Shown piece after piece: positions 50,217-59,726 of a stretch of 64,000 nt of DNA. Made by a program: the position numbers and the translations under genes. Position 1 is the first letter of the stretch. Each line of letters opens with the position of its first letter. Source of the stretch: an uncultured Acidimicrobiales bacterium (GTDB taxonomy: Bacteria > Actinomycetota > Acidimicrobiia > Acidimicrobiales > SHLQ01); assembly GCA_964562985.1 (NCBI GenBank), contig CAZLWE010000002.1, forward strand, positions 1,630 through 65,629, read 5' to 3'. The notes below the pieces were generated by a model that ran no database searches, was not told the origin of the DNA, and was given only the letters and a program-made list of their open reading frames with translations.

Positions 50217-51233
50217 GTGATGGGTGACATGCCAACAACACAGCTTCTGCTCGATCAGCTTGCCGCGGCTCCCATGGCTGACGACGAGAGTCGTGCGGCT
50301 ACCCAAGCTCGGGTCGACGACATCTTGCGGCCAGGGGGCGCGTTCGCTCGGCTCGACGAGGTCGCCGTGCACTTGTCGGCGTGGCAACGAACCCCCTCCC
50401 CGATGGTCAGGGCTCCAGCCGCGCTGATTTTCGCAGCAGATCACGGCGTCGCAGCTGACGGCGTGAGCGCGTATCCGGCCGAGGTGACCGGCGCGATGCT
50501 CGCCGCGTTCGAGGCATCGAAGGCGACCGTGTCTGCCCTGGCGACGGTGGCGGGCGCAACCGTGCGGGCAATCGATGTGGGAGTCGGCAACCCAACCGCG
50601 AACCTGCGAACCGAAGCAGCTATGAGCCCGCAGCGTTTCGGCGAGTCCTTCGACGCTGGTCGAAGCGCTGTTGCCGAGCGAGAAACCGACCTGCTGATTC
50701 TGGGCGAGATGGGTATCGGCAACACCTCGGCTGCCGCAGCCGTTACCGCGGCGATCATCGGCGGCGACACGGCGACCTTCGTTGGGCGAGGAACGGGAGT
50801 CGACGATGAGGCATACGAGAACAAGGTTGCTGTCATATCCGAAGCCGTCGAGCGCATCGCCGAGGTCGAAGACCCGCTGGAAGTACTGCGAGAGGTCGGT
50901 GGCGCTGAGCTAGCCGCTATCGCTGGCGCGCTGGTCGAAGCTCGTATGCGCTCGATTCCGGTGTTGTTGGACGGCTACATCGCCAGCACGCCAGCACTGG
51001 TGCTTCACGCGATCGACCCACGCCTGACCGAGCATTGTTTGGCCGGACACGGTTCGGCTGAGCCGGGGCACCAACACATTCTCGATCGCCTTGGTTTGGA
51101 ACCCTTGATCACGCTCGACCTGCGCCTCGGCGAAGCATCGGGAGCGATGGCAGCGGTGCCGCTGGTAAAGATGGCGTGCGCCGCTGTGACCGAGGTGCCG
51201 ACATTTGCTGAGTGGTTCGGGCCCAACGAATGA
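50217..51233 (+). CDS. cobT: Nicotinate-nucleotide--dimethylbenzimidazole phosphoribosyltransferase
   Basis: LILGEMGIGNTSAAAA and GEASGA motifs, about 338 aa. Confidence 0.9.
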   Translation: MMGDMPTTQLLLDQLAAAPMADDESRAATQARVDDILRPGGAFARLDEVAVHLSAWQRTPSPMVRAPAALIFAADHGVAADGVSAYPAEVTGAMLAAFEASKATVSALATVAGATVRAIDVGVGNPTANLRTEAAMSPQRFGESFDAGRSAVAERETDLLILGEMGIGNTSAAAAVTAAIIGGDTATFVGRGTGVDDEAYENKVAVISEAVERIAEVEDPLEVLREVGGAELAAIAGALVEARMRSIPVLLDGYIASTPALVLHAIDPRLTEHCLAGHGSAEPGHQHILDRLGLEPLITLDLRLGEASGAMAAVPLVKMACAAVTEVPTFAEWFGPNE

Positions 51234-51955
51234 GCGTTCGGGTAGCGGTCGGGTTCCTGACCCGCATCCCTGTCGGCGACCCCAGCTCTGGAGGTTCACG
51301 AGAGGTCAAGGTCGGCCGTGCCGTGCCGTGGTTTCCCATTGTGGGAGCACTCATCGGCGCCACCCAAGGTGGCGTCTGGTGGTTGCTCGCCCAAGGCACT
51401 ACTCCCCTCGTCGCAGCTACATTGTCGACCACCGTCGCAGCGCTCATCACCGGCGCGTTCCATCACGATGGCTTAGCCGATATGGCCGACGCCTTCGGCG
51501 GTGGATGGACGGTCGAGCAGCGCATGGAGATCTTGAAGGACTCCCGCCTAGGCACCTACGGCACCACGGCACTGGTGCTGGCGTTCGGCCTGGAGATTGC
51601 CGCGCTCTCGTCGTTCGAGCCAACCGCTGGCGCCCTCACGCTCATCGCAATGCACATGTTCGGGCGAACGCTCGCCGTCTTCGCCATGCTTGCAGCACCG
51701 GTTGCCGGAGACGGATTGGGCGCGGCCTACATGGCGGATATACCGCGCTTGTCGACGCAGATTGTCTTGTTCTTCGCAACCGTGGCGACGGCCGCCGCGC
51801 TCAATTCGACCGCGTGGGCGATCGCTCCCGCAGCTCTCGCCGCGATCACAATCGTCGTGCTCGCTCGCCGCAAGATCGGTGGCATCACCGGCGATGTCCT
51901 CGGCGCAATCACCGTGGTGAGCGGCGTGACGATGCTGGTGGCCGCGACGTTCTAG
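51230..51955 (+). CDS. cobS: Adenosylcobinamide-GDP ribazoletransferase (cobalamin synthase)
   Basis: Start at ATG 51230 (ATGA overlap with cobT). FLTRIPV and HHDGLADMADA motifs; polytopic. Confidence 0.85.
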   Translation: MSVRVAVGFLTRIPVGDPSSGGSREVKVGRAVPWFPIVGALIGATQGGVWWLLAQGTTPLVAATLSTTVAALITGAFHHDGLADMADAFGGGWTVEQRMEILKDSRLGTYGTTALVLAFGLEIAALSSFEPTAGALTLIAMHMFGRTLAVFAMLAAPVAGDGLGAAYMADIPRLSTQIVLFFATVATAAALNSTAWAIAPAALAAITIVVLARRKIGGITGDVLGAITVVSGVTMLVAATF

Positions 51956-51966
51956 CGAGTGGGCCC

Positions 51967-52416
51967 CTAGCACTGACCAGTCCCCGTGATCCGCGCGATG
52001 GCTGCCGCAAGCGCCTCCTTGTAGTCGCCCGCGAGCACTTGTGGGAGTGTCTCCTCGAGCGAGGCTTCAAGATCCCACAACACCCGGCGCTCGTGTTCTG
52101 GAAGAATGTCAAACGCTTCCAACTCGGTGAAACGAGACAACCAATCGAAGAATACGAGCGCCTGATCATCGCTCATAAGCGAAGCCTCGTCCGTCATGCC
52201 AAGAGCCCGACCATCTCCGTGTCGAAGGGTCTTCTTCTGAGCCACAAGGCTCGATAGAAGCGACTGTAGTTCGTCTGCATCAGCGCCGACGCGAGTCGAG
52301 ATATCGCCGTCGCTTAACGCGTCAAGAGTCTCACGAAGACCACCTTGCAAGAGTGACAATTCACGCTTCGTCACCTCAAGAACGAAGAGCCTTGCATCGG
52401 AATGACTAAGTTCCAT
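51967..52416 (-). CDS. Hypothetical acidic helical protein (second candidate immunity/accessory gene)
   Basis: 149-aa ORF downstream of the toxin-immunity pair on the same strand. No family recognised. Confidence 0.45.
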   Translation of the reverse strand: MELSHSDARLFVLEVTKRELSLLQGGLRETLDALSDGDISTRVGADADELQSLLSSLVAQKKTLRHGDGRALGMTDEASLMSDDQALVFFDWLSRFTELEAFDILPEHERRVLWDLEASLEETLPQVLAGDYKEALAAAIARITGTGQC

Positions 52417-52473
52417 AGCTCACGCTAACCCAACGACTCGACCCTCCCGGAAAGCAGAACTCAGGCAACCCGT

Positions 52474-53076
52474 TCAAGTACAGCCTGACCGAGAGCCTGC
52501 TGCGAATTCCTGCTCGTCATCCCACATCGTCTCGACCGTAGTTGTGAGAAACGAACCGTCTGGCGCAAAGATCGCGGCACGGGCGCCAGGTGACTCTTCC
52601 GAGACAATTACGCCATGTTCGATAGCAGCAGGCCTTGCCTTCCAATCTGCCTGACCGAACTGTGCCTCCGCGTTACGTACGGCTCGCTCGAGGTCGACTT
52701 GTTCTTGTTCGTGCAGTGGCAGCGACGACCGGATCGAATCAAATTGCTCCCGCAACTCGTGGCGCTCAACGAAAGACAGCTCAAACCACAACGATCTTGC
52801 CTCTGCGACCACCTCGCCCTCGGCGTTGAGCAATAGCGACACAATTGCGGCCTGACCCACCGGCAGGGCTCCGAACATTAGGGGCTGTCGATTGATATGG
52901 CTCCGTGCGAGGTCCACGAACTCTGCCATGCCTTCCGGGGTGATGCGCCTCGTGAGCGCAAACAGGCTCCGAGCGCGAACGACGGCAACCGCAGCTAGCG
53001 CCCCGTCCACTAACTCCGCCGACGACTGAACGTCGTACTCGGAATCAGCAGTCATCAAGTCCTCAAGCTTTGTCAT
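52474..53076 (-). CDS. Hypothetical protein, candidate immunity protein
   Basis: Starts 12 nt after the toxin stop, with AGGTGA as the RBS. 200 aa, cytoplasmic, acidic. Confidence 0.5.
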   Translation of the reverse strand: MTKLEDLMTADSEYDVQSSAELVDGALAAVAVVRARSLFALTRRITPEGMAEFVDLARSHINRQPLMFGALPVGQAAIVSLLLNAEGEVVAEARSLWFELSFVERHELREQFDSIRSSLPLHEQEQVDLERAVRNAEAQFGQADWKARPAAIEHGVIVSEESPGARAAIFAPDGSFLTTTVETMWDDEQEFAAGSRSGCT

Positions 53077-53088
53077 ATGGATTCACCT

Positions 53089-54681
53089 CTAGTCAAGAAA
53101 GTAGATCGCCCTAAACTCGGCGTCCTTGTTTGCGACAAGTTCTTCGGCGATGTCTGCCCGGCCTGCCTCATGCGCGGCCTCTATCTCAAGATCGTACGCC
53201 CGTTGCTCCATTGCCCACCGAGCATCTGGGTTCTGGGAGTAGTAACCCATGCCTGGGAAGCCGTTGGCGGCATCGTCAAGCGCATGTTGTGCCTCATGAC
53301 GAAGGGCGGACATCGAAGCATCTGGATCCAGGATTATTCTCCCGGGCTGACCTTGCGCTGGGCTATACGCAAGTGACCCTGGACGATTGGTGACAACGTC
53401 AAATCCCTGAGATCGCAGTTCTTCTACCAGTTGAGAAAATTCAGGCGTGCCTCTTCCGGGACCCTGGACTGCTCGCATCGGGTCGCCGTTCGATCGCAAT
53501 ACGTCGGTAGTTGCGTTGACAACATTGTCGCCACTTCGGCCGAGAATCCCCGCGTCTTCGAGCCAGCGTTTGGCCCATTGGAGTGCTTCGTCCAGGTTGC
53601 GGAAGATTAGTCCGTCGGCTGCGGCCTTGATAGCGGGTTTGGCCAACGTTGCGGCTTGTCCGATGCCCGGCAGTAGCGCAATGGAAGACAGCGCTGCGTC
53701 GAGGTACTCGCCTTCAGCCAGGTACCAGGCAGCGTTGATGCCATCGGCTGCGTTGCCGACTACTGGGACCATGCCGAACACGTCGAGCGTGAGGTGCCCA
53801 ATGTCGGAGAACGACCAACCGCCACCGGATTGGCTGATGCCCAGATGGTCTCGGGCGTCCTCCGAAGACTCGGCCATCGCGAGGACGATTCGCGCGTATT
53901 CGACTTGTTCGTCGGTGTAATAGCCGTGCTCGTTTTCGATCATGGCGTTGAGGTCGTTGGTCGACCAGACACCATCAGCGTCGGCAGAGCCGATGCCATC
54001 ACCGCGATCTTGTTTCGCAGTATCCAAGATGTCGCGGATTTGATCGAGTGCGTGCTCGGCGTCTTCGAACGGTGTCCGTTCGGGCGTGGACCATGCTTCG
54101 GCTTCTTGACGCCGGAACGCCGCCCACAGGTCGTCTACTTCTCGTTGACGCTCATCCATTCGCTCTTGGATGTCGCGGGCCTCACGCAACATGGCGTCGA
54201 GAATTGGGTCGTTGTCGCTGCCCGACCAGTTTTCGATCTTGTCGTTGAGTTCGGCGAGGCGTAACCGGTCCAGCGTTGCCTCGGGATCACGAGACTTCGC
54301 GGCTTCGGTGGCGTGATCGAACGACACGCCATCGCGCATCATGTCTTCAGCGGCTTCGATCTCTTCGGGTGTGAGCCCGGCTTGCCGGAACGCTGCGTTG
54401 AGGTCGGCGGGGATGAACGCTCGAACCCGGCCAGTGAGACCTAGCGGCTGGGCGTCGGTGGAGTGTAGGTAGTCCACTCGCCATGCAACATCGTCTCGCT
54501 CGGTGCGTAGGTCGTTCGCCAGTACGGTTAACGCCGGAATCGGCCCATAGGACGGATTCTGACCTGGCCGATTCAACAACGCGTACGCCTCGGTCAGCAG
54601 CGGCGACAATGCCACCATCGCTTCGCGCGCATTAGCCGAAGCAACGCCATAGGCGTCGGTGAGCGCCCCTGCGCTACTCAT
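53089..54681 (-). CDS. Polymorphic-toxin-like protein: helical N-terminal region, PT-TG-like module, C-terminal HEXXH domain
   Basis: LDVFGMVPVVGNAADGINAAWYLAEGEYLDAALSSIALLPGIGQAATLAK resembles the pre-toxin TG module of LXG-type toxins. The C-terminal about 150 aa carries LRHEAQHALDD. Start set at ATG 54681. Confidence 0.6.
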   Translation of the reverse strand: MSSAGALTDAYGVASANAREAMVALSPLLTEAYALLNRPGQNPSYGPIPALTVLANDLRTERDDVAWRVDYLHSTDAQPLGLTGRVRAFIPADLNAAFRQAGLTPEEIEAAEDMMRDGVSFDHATEAAKSRDPEATLDRLRLAELNDKIENWSGSDNDPILDAMLREARDIQERMDERQREVDDLWAAFRRQEAEAWSTPERTPFEDAEHALDQIRDILDTAKQDRGDGIGSADADGVWSTNDLNAMIENEHGYYTDEQVEYARIVLAMAESSEDARDHLGISQSGGGWSFSDIGHLTLDVFGMVPVVGNAADGINAAWYLAEGEYLDAALSSIALLPGIGQAATLAKPAIKAAADGLIFRNLDEALQWAKRWLEDAGILGRSGDNVVNATTDVLRSNGDPMRAVQGPGRGTPEFSQLVEELRSQGFDVVTNRPGSLAYSPAQGQPGRIILDPDASMSALRHEAQHALDDAANGFPGMGYYSQNPDARWAMEQRAYDLEIEAAHEAGRADIAEELVANKDAEFRAIYFLD

Positions 54682-54842
54682 ATGCATGCGAATTATCGGC
54701 ATAACATGAAATGTAGTGAAAAGCATTGAACGCGTCAAGCTACGATCTCTAGCCGTCCCTGCCGACGGCCTTGAACAGTTGGGGACCTGTACCTAACTGT
54801 TCTGTTGGTCAACCTGAGGACTCCGGGCACCGATAGAGAGAT

Positions 54843-55547
54843 ATGCAGGAACATGTTCTTGTTGTTGAGGACGCACCGGAGTTCCAACACATTCACCGCG
54901 AATCCCTATCGAAGGCGGGCTATCGAGTTTCGGTAGCTGGCGATGGCGCGCGGGCGCTGGAGATCGCGCGGTCCACCGAGCCGGTCGTAATCATCTTGGA
55001 TCTAGTCCTGCCCGATGTGGACGGCATGGAACTGTGCGCGGAGTTCCGCAAGTTCACCGATGCCTACATCATCATGGTGACGAGCCGAAGCGACGAGGTC
55101 GACAAGCTCGTCGGGCTGGCCGCTGGAGCCGATGACTACATCACCAAGCCATTCAGCAACCGTGAACTCGTGGCGAGGGTAGGCGTCCTACTTCGTCGGC
55201 CCCGGACGCTTGGCGAGGACGAATCGACCGCTCGTGACTTCGGTGATCTCGTCATCGATGCCGCGGCCCGAGAGGTCACGCTCGACGGCGAGACCCTCTC
55301 GTTGACCAAGATCGAGTTCGACATTCTCGACGCGCTCACGATCGACCCCAACGTGGTGCGATCGCGCGACTCACTGCTGGAACACGTATGGGGCCCGAAC
55401 TGGGTTGGCGACACTCACGTGATCGACGTACACCTGGCGAATCTGCGCAAGAAAATCGACGCCAACGGCGTCAAGCACATCAAGACCATCCGAGGTGTCG
55501 GCTATCGGTTCGCTGGCAGCAGCGCTACGGCGCAAACGGCAGCGTAA
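54843..55547 (+). CDS. OmpR/PhoB-family response regulator
   Basis: REC domain (VLVVEDAPE..ILDLVLPDVDG..DDYITKPF) and a winged-helix output domain (LTKIEFDILD..IKTIRGVGYRF). Confidence 0.9.
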   Translation: MQEHVLVVEDAPEFQHIHRESLSKAGYRVSVAGDGARALEIARSTEPVVIILDLVLPDVDGMELCAEFRKFTDAYIIMVTSRSDEVDKLVGLAAGADDYITKPFSNRELVARVGVLLRRPRTLGEDESTARDFGDLVIDAAAREVTLDGETLSLTKIEFDILDALTIDPNVVRSRDSLLEHVWGPNWVGDTHVIDVHLANLRKKIDANGVKHIKTIRGVGYRFAGSSATAQTAA

Positions 55548-56409
55548 CGGTCACCGTCGTCGACTCGCCGGGTGCCGACTCGATGCCCAATGCGGCGTTC
55601 GTGTGGGTCGCGAGACGTTTGATAAGCGAGTAACCAATACCCCGAGCTTGGGAGTTCGACCAATCGTGGAACGTCGGGTCGAGCAGCGGTCCCACGTCGT
55701 CGATCCCGGGGCCGGCATCGACCACCGAGAACACCACACCGTCGTCTGCGTCGTCGGCAGCGATCTTCAAGAGGCCTGGCTGACCGTGCTTGATCGCATT
55801 GCCGATCAGCTCATCGAGGATCGTATCGAGGTCCGATCGGTGCCCGAGCGCAGAGTCGTCGCCAGCGCATCGGTACTCGCTAGCGAGCAATAGGCCCGCC
55901 CGCAGCGCACGGTGCTTCCATCGCTCGCCCGCGCGCGTTAGGACGTCCATGACGTCGATCGCGCCAACCTCGGTCGAGTGCGGTTCCTCCAGCTCAAGAA
56001 ACAAGAGCAGTCGGGTCATGATGACTTCGAGGTCGCGCGCCGAGGCCAAACCATCTTCGAGCCAAGCGCGCATCTGTTCAGACTTTGCGTTGGCACCAGC
56101 CGTCTCCATCACCCCGAGCACGCCGTTAAGCGGTGAGCGGGTCTCTCGCGAGAGGAGGCGAAGGAATTCGGCGCGCTCAGCGGCCGATAGTGCTGCCTTC
56201 GTCCGTTCCTGCTCGAGTTCTTCGGTGCGTTGCGCGACGCGATCGTCGAGTTCTTGGTTGACAAGGAACAGCCGGCGCATGCCGTCCTCGGCGATGCGTT
56301 CGGCTTCTTCGCGCGCCGAGCGCTCACGTGCTACCCGTCGCTCCAGGCGCGCGACCCTTTTCTCAAGGTCGGCCCGCTCTAGGTCGGACAGTTCCAGCTC
56401 AGGCGACAT
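55525..56409 (-). CDS. Histidine-kinase-like protein lacking the phospho-acceptor His (coiled coil + degenerate HisKA + HATPase_c)
   Basis: The H-box reads AEFLRLLSRETRSPLNGVLG, with Arg where the SHE(L/I)RTPLN His is expected. N-box ELIGNAIKHG, G1 VDAGPGID and G2 GIGYSL are intact. No TM or sensor domain. Confidence 0.75.
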   Translation of the reverse strand: MSPELELSDLERADLEKRVARLERRVARERSAREEAERIAEDGMRRLFLVNQELDDRVAQRTEELEQERTKAALSAAERAEFLRLLSRETRSPLNGVLGVMETAGANAKSEQMRAWLEDGLASARDLEVIMTRLLLFLELEEPHSTEVGAIDVMDVLTRAGERWKHRALRAGLLLASEYRCAGDDSALGHRSDLDTILDELIGNAIKHGQPGLLKIAADDADDGVVFSVVDAGPGIDDVGPLLDPTFHDWSNSQARGIGYSLIKRLATHTNAALGIESAPGESTTVTVTLPFAP

Positions 56410-56950
56410 CGCGTTGCGCTACGACCTCGCGCCGGACGGCGATCACTGATTCAGTGCCTTCACCGCTGAGCACCTCGATCGTCACTGGCTCGTTGTAGTG
56501 GTCACCCGCACCGAGGATGAGCCCTTCGGCCAGTGGGGACAGTCCCCGTTCGGACCGGTAGGTCAGGTGTAGTTCGTCGTCGCTGATTCGCTCGGGGATC
56601 ACGTCTGGTGGCTTGGCGTTCGGATCGAGCTTCTTGACTTCCACATGGATGATGCTGTGGATCGATTCCAGGAACGCGAGCACATCGAGGTCGGGGTCGA
56701 GGAAGTCCGACATCGACGCGACGAGATGCGGCAGGGCCTGTCGTCCGACGAGGCGTTGCACGTCGGCCGGGTCGTGGCCGGTCTTGCTAGCCGCAACCGA
56801 CACCAGGGCGAGGAGGTCTTCGTCCGGATAGGTCCCGAGGGCGGTGTAGCCACCGTTGAGGCCGGCGTCGTCGAGCAGGTCGTCCCAGGCGTCCTCACCA
56901 AGTAGCTCAGTGACGGCCTTCTCGGTGACGTTAAAGATGATGCCTTTCAT
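56399..56950 (-). CDS. H-NOX (haem nitric oxide/oxygen-binding) sensor protein
   Basis: MKGIIFNV..LLGEDAWDDLL N-terminus, candidate proximal His in LESIHSIIHVEVKK, KPP Pro, and the Y-x-S-x-R motif (LTYRSERG). ATGA overlap with the upstream kinase gene. Confidence 0.8.
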   Translation of the reverse strand: MKGIIFNVTEKAVTELLGEDAWDDLLDDAGLNGGYTALGTYPDEDLLALVSVAASKTGHDPADVQRLVGRQALPHLVASMSDFLDPDLDVLAFLESIHSIIHVEVKKLDPNAKPPDVIPERISDDELHLTYRSERGLSPLAEGLILGAGDHYNEPVTIEVLSGEGTESVIAVRREVVAQRDVA

Positions 56951-58428
56951 GCGGCCATCCCCGTTTCTAGTCGTTGTTGTAGTTGGGCTTCCACGTGAGA
57001 AATCTCCCCTACCAAGCGAGCCCGAAGGGCATCGCTTGGATGATCTGTCTTTTCGTATTCGGCGCACAGGCGGGCAAGCCGCTCGGCGCCGATCAGGGCG
57101 CTCGTCGACTTGAGGGTGTGTGCGGCCCGGCGCGCCTCTTCACCGGTGTCAGCCTCATTACCCACGAGGAGTTCGGTACGGGATCCCAACTCGGCAAGGT
57201 AGGTCTCGATCACGACCCGCACCGTGTCGGCGTCGCCGAGATCCTCAACCAGGGCTTCGATGGCCTCGTGCATCGTGTCGGTGCTGTCGGCCTGACGTTG
57301 CGTGGCGTCGAAGCTTTGATCGGTGGTGTCGTCGTGACCTAACCAACGCGTCATCATGGCGCGCATGTCGTCGAGGCTGACCGGTTTCCCAAGGTGGTCG
57401 TTCATACCGGCATCGAGGCATGCGAGACGATCTCCTGCCAATACGTTGGCGGTCATAGCGATGATCGGAACGTCGGGTGGCACGAGCTCTTGCGCACGAA
57501 TCTCTTGGGTGGTCTCGATACCGTTTGCGCCCGGCAGGTTCCAGTCCATCAAGATCAGGTCGACAGATTCGGATGTGAGGAATTCGAGCGCTCGCTCGCC
57601 GCTGTCGACGGCCACAGCACCGAGGCCGAGTAGCTCGAGTTGTTTGAGCGCGAGGGTGCGGTTGATCTCGGAGTCTTCTACGACGAGCACCGTTCCCGAC
57701 GCGGTACCGGTTGGGGCGATTCGTTCGACGTCTTTGCTTTCGGCTGCTGCACATGGAATCGAGAAAACAAAAGTGCTACCCACACCGACCGTGCTATCGG
57801 CCGAGATCGTGCCGTCCATCGCATCGGCGATCCGCCGCACAATGGCCAAACCAAGGCCGGTCCCTTGCACACCTGCGTTTCCGACCCGAACAAACGGTTC
57901 GAAGATGACCTCCAGGTCATCGGGCTCGATGCCGACACCGCTGTCTCGCACCTGCACCGAGAGGTTCGTGGCGTCGGAGGCCAAGGTGACCTGAACCGAG
58001 CCGATCTGGGTATAGCGGATGGCGTTGCTGATGAGGTTGTGGACGACCTGGCCGAAACGGACGGAGTCGCCCATGACCCGCAAGGGCACATCGGAGGAGA
58101 AGTCGACCAGCAAGCGAAGACCCGCTTCCTTGGCATCGGGACGCAGTCGATCGGCGATGGAGGTCACCAAGGTGCGCGGAGCGAAAGGTTCGTTTTCGAG
58201 GCTCGGGGTGGTGGAACTGAACTCGCCGTAGGTGATGACATCATCCACGAGCACTCGCATCGAGGCGGCCTCGTCGTACAGGGTTTGTGCGATCCGGTGG
58301 TTGGCATCGTCGAGGTCGCTGTTGAGCAAGAGTTCGGACAGCCCGAGAAAGGCGTGCAGCGGCCCGCGCAGTTCGTGGCTGACCGCAGCCATGAACCGTT
58401 CATCGCTTGATGTGGATCGCTTCGTCAT
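56947..58428 (-). CDS. Sensor-less hybrid histidine kinase (HisKA-HATPase-REC-Hpt)
   Basis: Starts almost directly at the H-box (FMAAVSHELRGPL). N/G1/F/G2 boxes present. REC domain (VLVVEDSE..LILMDWNLPG..GKP). Hpt domain (AAHTLKSTSALIGA). Confidence 0.85.
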   Translation of the reverse strand: MTKRSTSSDERFMAAVSHELRGPLHAFLGLSELLLNSDLDDANHRIAQTLYDEAASMRVLVDDVITYGEFSSTTPSLENEPFAPRTLVTSIADRLRPDAKEAGLRLLVDFSSDVPLRVMGDSVRFGQVVHNLISNAIRYTQIGSVQVTLASDATNLSVQVRDSGVGIEPDDLEVIFEPFVRVGNAGVQGTGLGLAIVRRIADAMDGTISADSTVGVGSTFVFSIPCAAAESKDVERIAPTGTASGTVLVVEDSEINRTLALKQLELLGLGAVAVDSGERALEFLTSESVDLILMDWNLPGANGIETTQEIRAQELVPPDVPIIAMTANVLAGDRLACLDAGMNDHLGKPVSLDDMRAMMTRWLGHDDTTDQSFDATQRQADSTDTMHEAIEALVEDLGDADTVRVVIETYLAELGSRTELLVGNEADTGEEARRAAHTLKSTSALIGAERLARLCAEYEKTDHPSDALRARLVGEISHVEAQLQQRLETGMAA

Positions 58429-59726
58429 CGTCGGGAACCTCCAGTGACCAATCGGCGGCCACCGCCATTTCGTTGAGTAGCACGATTGCCAACCACGACG
58501 ACGCCCCATGTGGTGAGTACGAGCAACCCGACCACCACCGTGCGTGCGACGACGAAGGACTCAAGCGATGCCGACCTCGTGGCGAGGACCACCCCGAGGA
58601 CGACCACTCCTCCAAGGAGCAGAGTTGCCGGTCGGGCGTCGCCATCGACCGACGACACCATTGCGGCCCCGGCGACTACGGCGATCAGCCCCGTTCCCAA
58701 GGCATACGGGCCGACGAGGTAGGCCAGGTCGGCGAACTCGGTGCCGTAGGTGATCCCAACCCAGACATCGGCGGTCAACCAGGCGCCGGTCACGAGGATG
58801 GCGACTAAGACGAGATTTCCGGCGGTGAATATGCGTCGACGGAGCACTGGTGTCAGTGGCGCGTCTTCGGCGGTCACGAACGGAAGGACCGCTTGTTGGA
58901 TGGTCCACGACCCGAAGAACACGATCCGCCCGGCCAGCGTGAGTGCAGCGAACCCTCCGGCGGTCGCCGGATCGAAGGCAGCTTTGGCAATGATGAGATC
59001 GAGATTCGTCAGCGCGGTGACAGCGATGAGACCAGCACCGACGGAACGAAGCGGCGGGTGCCCGGCGGGTGAGGACAGGTCACACCACGACCAGCGGCCG
59101 AGATGCGGTCGGCAAACGACGTAGCTGGCAAGAAAGCCGATGTTGAGCGCGATCGTCAACCCGAGAAGCCCCTTGAAGAGGACGACGACCACCGCCGTGG
59201 CCGCAGCGCGAGCAATGCCTTCCGCTAGCAGAGCGGTGGTGAGCTTTGCGAAAGCCATTTCGCCGTGGAGCCGGCCCCGCTCGACGGCGAGTTGAAGGTG
59301 CACGGGAAGACCGAACGCCATGACGAGAAGCGCCCAGGGGCTCTCGATGTTCAGCGCGCCGGCGAGTTGTGGTGCAGCCAGACCGAGCAACAGCGCACCA
59401 CCCAAGCCGATCCGGTTGGTGAGCAATCGCATTGCTGCTACGTCGCTCGCAGAATCTCGAGCCGGGTTCAACACCGCTACCGAGGTCGTGAGTTGCAGTA
59501 CGCAGGCCAGCACGCCAATGACGAGCAGCAGGGTCACCATGAGCGAGATATCGCCGAAGGTTTCAGGCGATAGCACCGACGCGAGCCAGATGTTGATGCC
59601 AAAGTTCACTGCATTGACGACCATCATCGCCGCCACCAATGTTGCGCTTCCGCCACCGAGCTTCTTGAGCGACGAGGTCCGGTCGTTGGTGACTTGCGTG
59701 GCTGCCTTTCTTCTCATAGCGATCAT
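58425..59726 (-). CDS. Wzx/MOP-family polysaccharide flippase-like membrane protein
   Basis: About 12 TM helices. Start set at ATG 59726 (ATGA overlap with the upstream STAS gene). The longer ORF N-terminus is Arg-rich off-frame text. Confidence 0.7.
   Translation of the reverse strand: MIAMRRKAATQVTNDRTSSLKKLGGGSATLVAAMMVVNAVNFGINIWLASVLSPETFGDISLMVTLLLVIGVLACVLQLTTSVAVLNPARDSASDVAAMRLLTNRIGLGGALLLGLAAPQLAGALNIESPWALLVMAFGLPVHLQLAVERGRLHGEMAFAKLTTALLAEGIARAAATAVVVVLFKGLLGLTIALNIGFLASYVVCRPHLGRWSWCDLSSPAGHPPLRSVGAGLIAVTALTNLDLIIAKAAFDPATAGGFAALTLAGRIVFFGSWTIQQAVLPFVTAEDAPLTPVLRRRIFTAGNLVLVAILVTGAWLTADVWVGITYGTEFADLAYLVGPYALGTGLIAVVAGAAMVSSVDGDARPATLLLGGVVVLGVVLATRSASLESFVVARTVVVGLLVLTTWGVVVVGNRATQRNGGGRRLVTGGSRR

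Follow-up and report, generated by a model that had tools for sequence, protein, structure and literature searches.

Polymorphic toxin systems, among them the type VII-exported LXG/WXG-type toxins of Gram-positive bacteria (PMC3482391), are the closest described counterparts of a locus on the minus strand of a 64,000-nucleotide (nt) stretch of contig CAZLWE010000002.1, which we call the window throughout and which comes from what is probably an uncultured actinobacterium of the order Acidimicrobiales. The locus consists of a toxin gene and 2 smaller open reading frames, ORF1 and ORF2, in tandem and head to tail, and it resembles LXG/WXG-type systems in that a carrier region without a signal peptide is followed by a pre-toxin segment, an exchangeable C-terminal toxin domain (the tip), and a presumptive immunity gene directly 3′. 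It shares with polymorphic toxin systems in general the presence of orphan tips in the genome and the occurrence of its tip on other delivery systems, and with LXG/WXG-type systems a genome that holds an FtsK/SpoIIIE ATPase and a WXG-like gene. That the window encodes a polymorphic toxin with an exchangeable tip is, in our view, nearly certain. The fuller explanation that best accounts for the observations, in which a polymorphic toxin-immunity cassette with a zincin-like tip would be exported by a type VII-like route and expressed from a leaderless messenger RNA (mRNA), we consider quite probable.

A homologue search with the toxin found 52 homologous proteins, and their alignment places the conserved part at residues 1 to ~383 of the 530-amino-acid (aa) form that was initially annotated (~390 of the 537-aa form that we prefer below), ending in “...WLEDAGILGR”, after which the C-termini are unrelated. 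Pfam matches in the tips of these relatives include the nucleases Colicin_D, CdiA_C_tRNase, RNAse_A_bac, EndoU_bacteria, and Ribonuclease (barnase type), as well as Gln_amidase, YwqJ-deaminase, Prok-JAB, DUF6883, and, as a weak match, Ntox33. The initial annotation had described a polymorphic toxin whose C-terminal domain is zincin-like and whose gene is followed at once by one for immunity, and had proposed looking among relatives for variable C-termini on a conserved N-terminus; that comparison is clearly positive in the alignment, in the Pfam assignments of the tips, and in the sister loci described next, and the variability so found upholds its core claim.

The site that cobS and the response regulator gene flank in the chromosome could be recovered from 4 related metagenome contigs (L013, L014, L015, and L016). 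The toxin bodies of L013 and L016 are 94-98% identical to one another, to that in the window, and to those of L014/L015 over ~392 residues, and L014 and L015 can be aligned with the window at 87% identity over a longer stretch of 434 residues. Past ~aa 392, the tips and downstream small genes of the sister loci are completely different, L016 being a 97%-identical locus with the same cassette as the window. At the DNA level, the identity of the window to L013, L014, and L015 ends at 53520-53539 and restarts at 51953-51962, the end of cobS, and because of these breakpoints we define the exchangeable cassette as the tip together with ORF1 and ORF2. As read from these alignments, recombination at the junction swaps the tip and downstream small genes between strains, and the helix that forms the last conserved segment before the tip is the likely recombination handle. 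The cassette stands out modestly in composition, at the 3.7th percentile of equal-sized stretches of the genome (mean G+C 0.608, standard deviation 0.018), while the conserved toxin body has a G+C of 0.608 and thus sits at the genome average; the lower-G+C patch noted earlier is real but modest and is confined to the swappable cassette. An extra gene lies between the response regulator gene and the toxin gene in 2 of the sister loci (L014:4360-5907 and L015:616-2139, encoding 515 or 507 aa), one copy of which has a HemolysinCabind match; the window contains no such gene.

This arrangement is much like that of CdiA-CT/CdiI and Rhs-CT/RhsI, where there is likewise a sharp junction motif after which identity collapses, where a tip is exchanged together with its immunity gene, and where promoterless orphan tips start with the junction motif. 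Unlike those systems, the window has another carrier, neither a VENN nor a PxxxxDPxGL motif, and a monoderm actinobacterial host. One could also imagine that the locus has no part in conflict and encodes a protease with a housekeeping function, secreted or cytoplasmic, together with an inhibitor or a chaperone, as its flanking genes, cobS and a two-component system, are of the housekeeping kind. This is already contradicted by the variability of the C-termini, since nucleases and deaminases replace the tip at the same site in near-identical strains. The same tip is moreover found on RHS, PAAR, Hcp, and MuF carriers, the genome holds an orphan tip, and the composition of the cassette is atypical, so that a housekeeping role retains only a negligible probability.

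Within the host assembly (3.48 Mb in 131 contigs, 96% complete), tblastn and a profile search identified 8 copies of the N-terminal domain of the toxin, 7 in full-length genes on contigs C2, C14, C107, C66 (which has 2), C98, and C42, and 1 in a fragment on C1. The tips of these paralogues include Gln_amidase and EndoU. The fragment (C1:69134-69289) is a truncated N-domain of 52 residues followed by TAG, with the conserved promoter still present. The genome also has at least one orphan tip, which lacks a start codon (C14:57496-57047) and is located downstream of the C14 paralogue and the small gene of that paralogue; it opens with the junction motif “FRNLDEALQWAKRWLEEAGILRR”, and small ORFs come after it at 57057-56764 (97 aa) and 56702-56325 (125 aa). 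Orphan tips are the classical substrate for tip replacement by recombination. The junction of the C14 orphan tip is more like that of the window's toxin than that of the adjoining C14 paralogue.

Zincin-like domains are an established class among polymorphic toxins and include Tox-MPTase1-5, the HopH1/NleD-like domains, and PVC-metallopeptidase (PMC3482391). The tip of the window's toxin resembles them in that its HExxH helix is followed by one with a conserved Glu, both within a small alpha+beta domain, and in its C-terminal position on RHS, WXG, and TcdB-type carriers in many phyla. When the 148-aa domain was scored against 1.84 billion cluster representatives, 534 matched at E ≤ 1e-3 and 328 at E ≤ 1e-10, and in all but 3 of the 150 matches listed the domain lies within ~30 residues of the C-terminus of proteins that range from 93 to 3429 aa. 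One of the 3 exceptions, the 2711-aa P0056, with 12 weak repeated stretches, is an ankyrin-repeat protein without HExxH and was set aside as a spurious match that arose from the summing of scores. When 77 carriers of the tip were scanned with Pfam, the families found were RHS repeats, PAAR, Hcp, DUF4280, Phage_Mu_F, Phage_min_cap2, WXG100, T7SS_signal, PT-HINT, and SpvB/TcdB, and none of them covers the tip itself. A particularly informative carrier is P0048 (locus L011), which shares only the tip with the window's toxin (64% identity) and has a T7SS_signal N-terminus; its gene stands directly after genes for WXG100 and DUF6317 proteins, which adjoin a divergent gene for an FHA-FtsK/SpoIIIE ATPase. 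A word-index search with the tip region found 5 proteins. A narrower tip alignment gave 2 genome loci and none in metagenome contigs, where another tip alignment gave 19; in viral contigs, this other alignment gave no locus.

The conserved pattern of the tip reads G, Y, P, G, then DPDAS-x-SAL-R-HE-xx-H-x-x-D ... E-xxx-Y-xx-E. Across 25 diverse members, no variation is seen at E470, H473, E499, Y503, or E506 and almost none at H469 or D476 (537-aa numbering), and a 21-member set closely agrees. The HEAQH motif and downstream Glu residues of the ~150-aa C-terminal domain, which had first suggested a zincin, are in this way borne out by a nearly invariant HExxH and by conserved D, E, Y, and E residues after it. 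An AlphaFold2 model of the tip, built on 21 sequences, has a mean predicted local distance difference test (pLDDT) score of 90.9 and a predicted template modelling (pTM) score of 0.84, and orders the domain as a helix, three strands, the HExxH helix (helix 75-90), a short helix, a long helix (helix 103-123 for E499, which it carries along with Y503 and E506), and a final helix. This is the same order as in the small-zincin layout described for toxin domains (PMC3482391). If the model is right, zinc would be held by H469 and H473 and probably E499, with E470 as the catalytic base.

Several negative results weigh against this assignment. None of the zincin family models reaches threshold against the tip; the sub-threshold Pfam matches among the 21 members are to Peptidase_M9 (8 of 21), Tox-MPTase4 (1 of 21), and Tox-MPTase2 (1 of 21). 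Searching the PDB sequences with the toxin and with the tip profile returned no usable match, and Foldseek of the tip model against the PDB gave no significant fold match, the top entry being ArdC (E 0.5), whose C-terminal domain we take to be a metalloprotease. In the viral fold library BFVD, a MuF-type minor capsid protein ranks first (E 0.011, probability 1.0), ahead of weak matches to IrrE-like, matrixin, SprT-like, and PolyVal metallopeptidases (E 0.08-0.9). As no family or fold match is significant, the assignment as a zincin draws on the motif and on the order of secondary-structure elements in the predicted model.

If the tip is a toxin and yet no peptidase, then its HExxH might hydrolyse another substrate, for which an amide bond in a small molecule, a nucleotide, or a cell-envelope precursor can be imagined, or the domain might act by binding. 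Such a role would agree with the failure of every peptidase family to reach threshold, with the lack of significance in the fold searches, and with a conserved hydrophobic stretch in ORF1 that could place the ORF1 protein in the membrane. On the other hand, residues of catalytic type are invariant or nearly so across hundreds of clusters, which argues for catalysis, the strands, HExxH helix, and Glu helix come in the order seen in zincin peptidases, almost every weak neighbour in the profile and fold searches is a metallopeptidase, and zincin toxin domains already form a recognised class of polymorphic toxin domain (PMC3482391). We regard a non-peptidase tip as unlikely and consider the tip to be probably a metal-dependent, zincin-like hydrolase, for which a protein is the somewhat favoured substrate. 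In the mechanism that we envisage, the tip would most likely cleave a cytoplasmic protein of a competing bacterium.

The tip may correspond to Tox-MPTase1 of Zhang et al. 2012, a likeness that lies in the reported carrier range alone: T7SS-WXG, TcdB/TcaC, and RHS carriers are given for Tox-MPTase1 (PMC3482391) and overlap with those of the window's tip. It differs from Tox-MPTase2 and Tox-MPTase4 in that their models match the tip members only as stated above, and no other Tox-MPTase model appears among the matches listed. No immunity protein is listed for MPTase1-5 (PMC3482391), whereas a dedicated immunity family is evident for the tip described here.

The evidence for this immunity family comes from the genes that follow the tip. 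Of 22 assembled loci that carry the tip, 19 have an ORF of 116-208 aa within ~15 nt of the toxin stop, 2 have one after 55-113 nt, and 1 has none. An ORF1 homologue follows the same tip in L017, a genome bin assigned to Acidimicrobiales (43% identical over 200 aa), in L019 (39-41%), and in L011 and L020 (25-28%), loci that between them have three different carriers. In L011, the gene downstream of P0048 encodes 123 aa and aligns with the first 110 residues of ORF1 at 28% identity (pairwise E 1e-9). A word-index homologue search with ORF1 found ORF1 alone. An iterated profile unites ORF1 with the downstream ORFs of 12 of the 22 other tip loci in one family, but it was built on a small sequence set in which drift is possible. 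Where other tips occupy the window's own chromosomal site, unrelated small genes follow them and no member of the ORF1 family is present. Because its homologues travel with the tip while other tips have unrelated small genes, ORF1 is very probably the cognate immunity protein, which, made in the producer, would bind and block the tip.

ORF1 consists of a conserved domain of aa 1 to ~120 and a lineage-specific C-terminal extension. It has no signal peptide and contains the conserved hydrophobic stretch already mentioned (aa 65-84, at 52825-52884, PLMFGALPVGQAAIVSLLLN, hydropathy 1.77 over 19 residues), which could be a membrane helix or, alternatively, a buried helix. A membrane helix, if real, would weaken the case for a cytoplasmic target of the tip and so counts against the mechanism proposed above.

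The situation is different for ORF2, and only one of the 2 immunity-like genes of the initial annotation has fared well, since ORF1 travels with the tip on other carriers and ORF2 is found elsewhere only in the same cassette of the near-identical locus L016. ORF2 is absent from the other tip loci L017, L019, L011, and L020, and a search for its relatives in 400 Actinomycetota genomes gave marginal matches only. Directly upstream of its start codon is a conserved 48-nt spacer, which in L014 (8055-8100) and L015 (4310-4355) precedes a non-homologous second small gene of 120 aa in the place of ORF2; this spacer could be a promoter or a second recombination joint. L016 has 2 more small genes past ORF2 (L016:8872-9818), one of which encodes 122 aa and shows 40% identity with the 151-aa gene of L014, itself the immunity candidate for another tip. 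The comparison of these loci suggests that the sister loci accumulate orphan immunity genes.

That ORF2 is a small gene unconnected with the toxin or an orphan immunity gene that remains from an earlier cassette, and no second immunity gene for the window's toxin, is the interpretation that we prefer with some confidence. It would agree with the absence of ORF2 from the other tip loci, with the non-homologous gene behind the same spacer in another cassette, with the gathering of extra small genes in the sister loci, one of them akin to the immunity candidate of another tip, and with the public record of the contig, which calls only 76 aa for ORF2. It is opposed by the position of ORF2 within the swapped block and by the 149-aa frame, which is open in all 6 full-length variants of its cluster. 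It seems more likely that ORF2 is a mere passenger or an orphan immunity gene than that it provides a second immunity protein for the window's toxin, and we consider it rather doubtful that ORF2 is an immunity gene.

The basic layout of the locus is as initially annotated: all three ORFs of the ORF list are present on the minus strand, ORF1 starts 12 nt after the TAG stop of the toxin gene with GAGGTG before it, in agreement with a ribosome-binding site of its own, and the toxin lacks a signal peptide (its maximum 19-residue hydropathy is only 1.41) and is both acidic (isoelectric point 4.4) and largely helical in its predicted structure. The earlier statement that the C-terminal domain and both small proteins match nothing that can be named also holds for the libraries that we searched, as Pfam, NCBIfam, and PHROG scans and a PDB sequence search gave no usable match for the toxin, ORF1, or ORF2.

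The start of the toxin gene, on the other hand, needs revision. It had been placed at ATG 54681, giving 530 aa, and we find that it more likely lies 21 nt upstream. In the homologue alignment, the N-termini follow the pattern M-[PS]-[IV]-[IV]-R-M-H, for which the equivalent in the window is ATG 54702, and upstream of all 8 N-domain copies in the genome stands the same arrangement of TTGACG, 17 nt, TAnnnT, 7 nt, and ATG. Because of these homologue N-termini and of this arrangement in every copy, ATG 54702 is the most likely start and gives a toxin of 537 aa. Still longer forms, from TTG 54738 or ATG 54726 (“MLFTTFHV...”), were considered and rejected, as the apparent in-frame conservation upstream of ATG 54702 arises because the promoter nucleotides are conserved. 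With so short a distance between promoter and start codon, the toxin mRNA is probably leaderless, and the recurrence of the arrangement suggests that all paralogues are under a common promoter and regulation, with leaderless mRNAs for the whole arsenal. The toxin gene would in this scheme be transcribed from the promoter common to the paralogues, a feature that sets these paralogues apart from LXG/WXG-type systems.

On the toxin side, the locus adjoins a signalling cluster (54843-58509) that encodes an OmpR-type response regulator, HATPase-type kinases, an H-NOX (HNOB) protein, and a hybrid histidine kinase, and this cluster is kept in the sister loci.

Table. Positions of the toxin locus, its parts, and its immediate flanks in the window.
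Feature	Position	Strand	Basis or remark
cobS	51212..51955	+	flank on ORF2 side
Swappable cassette (toxin tip, ORF1, and ORF2), G+C 0.574	51963..53520	-	DNA breakpoints against sister loci; composition
ORF2, 149 aa, acidic	51967..52416	-	part of swappable cassette
Conserved 48-nt spacer directly 5′ of ORF2 start codon	52419..52466	-	89% identical in L014, L015
ORF1, 200 aa, likely cognate immunity	52474..53076	-	homologues after same tip
Toxin frame, open	53089..54738	-	ORF list
Polymorphic toxin gene, 537 aa plus stop	53089..54702	-	homologue starts; C-termini vary in many of the 52 homologues
C-terminal toxin domain, aa 390-537, 148 aa	53092..53535	-	no Pfam, NCBIfam, or PHROG model matches
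HEAQH motif	53284..53298	-	translation checked; nearly invariant in domain family
Junction helix FRNLDEALQWAKRWLEDAGILGR, aa 367-389	53536..53604	-	last conserved segment before tip; DNA identity ends at 53520-53539
Glycine-rich pre-toxin module, aa 292-357 (GGGWSFSDIGHLTLDVFGMVPVVGNAADGINAAWY...LLPGIGQ)	53632..53829	-	PT-TG-like by position and pattern only
N-terminal carrier domain, aa 1-190	54133..54702	-	AlphaFold2 pLDDT ~85-95; 8 copies in genome; presumed export domain
Promoter-like site, TTGACG, 17 nt, TACATT; ends 7 nt before ATG 54702	54710..54738	-	consensus scan; putative function
OmpR-type response regulator gene	54843..55547	divergent from toxin	flank on toxin side

The conserved carrier (aa 1 to ~390) continues after its N-terminal domain with a helical middle, and between this middle and the junction helix lies the glycine-rich segment that had been said to resemble closely the PT-TG module preceding toxin domains in LXG toxins. 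The segment is well conserved in the members of the family that keep the middle region, and it recurs in other contexts: in P0053, PT-HINT follows directly after it (61% identity over 64 residues), and in longer paralogues it is found farther from the tip. Because it recurs in this way before PT-HINT and in the longer paralogues, the segment behaves as a pre-toxin module. A closer tie to PT-TG itself could not be confirmed by profile search. Like PT-TG (PF14449), it spans ~65 residues just before the tip, has the pattern (M/L)xPxVGxAxD ... G ... LxPxxG, of which “xPxVGxAxD ... G ... ” is shared with genuine PT-TG matches, and is followed by PT-HINT in one relative. Unlike PT-TG, it is not matched by the Pfam model at the thresholds tried (no match to the toxin at E ≤ 1, with a cut-off of 23.5 bits, and none in the whole genome at E ≤ 10, in a search that finds the family in Bacillus subtilis and 4 other control genomes), and it has W-Y where the 4 genuine PT-TG matches of the phylum have TG (3 of 4) or SG (1 of 4). 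A profile-profile comparison by hhalign gave a probability of 35% and a pairwise E of 4e-4 over 48 columns, against a PT-TG profile of only 4 sequences. A distant relation of the segment to PT-TG is possible on these alignments.

How the toxin leaves the cell is the least certain part of the explanation. A model of aa 1-390, confident over aa 1-190, begins with a short strand followed by a helix (8-42), a loop, a second helix (54-81), small helices, and a long helix, and Foldseek of this 390-aa model against the PDB returned only long helical proteins and was uninformative. When a profile of the first 110 residues was compared with the PDB, the best matches were WXG100 proteins, EsxA of S. aureus (E 0.015, residues 1-33 against EsxA 1-33) and SAG1039 (E 0.58). 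Elsewhere in the genome lies the gene for a 1390-aa ATPase (C53:802-4974) that combines an FHA domain and FtsK/SpoIIIE domains with two transmembrane segments and whose homology to the L011 type VII ATPase extends from end to end (28% identity over 1488 aligned positions). This gene adjoins a 167-aa ORF (C53:95-598, L005) that has a W-R-G motif and a WXG100 score of 17.2 bits, with the cut-off at 27.3. From the lack of a signal peptide, the weak resemblance to EsxA, and this unlinked EssC-like ATPase beside a weak WXG-like gene, we infer type VII export of the toxin, an assignment that we favour by a small degree. In this model, the toxin would be exported via a minimal type VII-like machinery, made up of the membrane FHA-FtsK/SpoIIIE ATPase and a WXG-like partner encoded elsewhere in the genome, which would recognise the WXG100-like helical hairpin at the N-terminus.

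A number of observations speak against type VII export and have to be set beside these. The similarity to EsxA is marginal and extends over 33 residues, the turn of the hairpin has no WxG motif, and the WXG-like ORF on C53 falls below the Pfam cut-off. The models for LXG (PF04740), WXG100 (PF06013), and T7SS_signal (PF21725) have no match in the toxin at E ≤ 1 and none in 48 family members at E ≤ 0.1, so LXG membership of the carrier region, as put forward in the initial annotation, is not demonstrable by profile search, and hhalign gives the N-domain and T7SS_signal carriers a probability of 0.3%, as for unrelated sequences. No EccB, YukD/EccD, or YukC/EssB was found in the 96%-complete genome, and the toxin loci with the N-domain, here and on 2 other contigs, are unlinked to the ATPase gene. 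The N-domain was found in none of 250 other genomes of the class, a sample in which the family of the host genome has no other member, and appears to be lineage-restricted. Compared with LXG/WXG-type systems, the differences are an N-domain that fits none of the available models and is apparently confined to one lineage, the lack of small helical partner genes upstream of the toxin, and the separation of toxin genes from the ATPase.

If the same toxin-immunity cassette is not exported by a type VII system, then its lineage-specific N-domain might serve another, undescribed route, or the toxin might be set free when some cells of the population lyse, in the manner of colicins and soluble pyocins. 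Such a release would fit an N-domain that is matched by no WXG100, LXG, or T7SS_signal model and is found in none of the other genomes of the class, toxin loci of which none examined adjoins type VII genes, and a genome in which EccB, YukD/EccD, and YukC/EssB are undetectable. It would leave aside that the best PDB profile matches are WXG100 proteins aligned from residue 1, that a helical hairpin is predicted, that the genome has an EssC-like membrane ATPase with a WXG-like neighbour, and that T7SS_signal and WXG100 proteins elsewhere carry the same tip. No lysis gene or contractile system was seen, and a search of the genome for a contractile sheath gene found none. We judge release by another route to be rather unlikely and retain type VII export as the working explanation.

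These parts can be combined into a bolder joint proposal, which we put forward tentatively and hold to be somewhat less probable than its negation. The N-domain, of 110-190 aa, would be an undescribed export signal that belongs to one marine Acidimicrobiales clade and serves at least 7 toxins under one shared leaderless promoter. It would feed these toxins into a stripped-down type VII-like machine that lacks EccB/D and EssB and comprises a WXG-like protein and an FHA-EssC ATPase. The first members of two undescribed families, a widespread zincin toxin and its immunity protein, would be the tip and ORF1, with type VI secretion, type VII secretion, MuF, and Tc-type systems as carriers.

Polymorphic toxins are well understood as a class, and the locus leaves this general picture unchanged. 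The system is an ordinary example of a well-known class of inter-bacterial weapon, and it contains three modules without a model in the libraries searched: the N-domain of the carrier, the immunity domain, and the zincin-like tip. Of these, the tip recurs in hundreds of protein clusters that span many delivery systems, and the carrier N-domain belongs to poorly studied, uncultured actinobacteria. Models for the tip, immunity, and N-domain families would therefore improve the annotation of toxin arsenals in metagenomes. With different tips at one site in near-identical strains, an orphan tip, and a shared promoter, the genome also offers a neat case of how such an arsenal is organised and regulated, and should the tip act as a protease on a cytoplasmic target, the identity of that target could be of wider interest.

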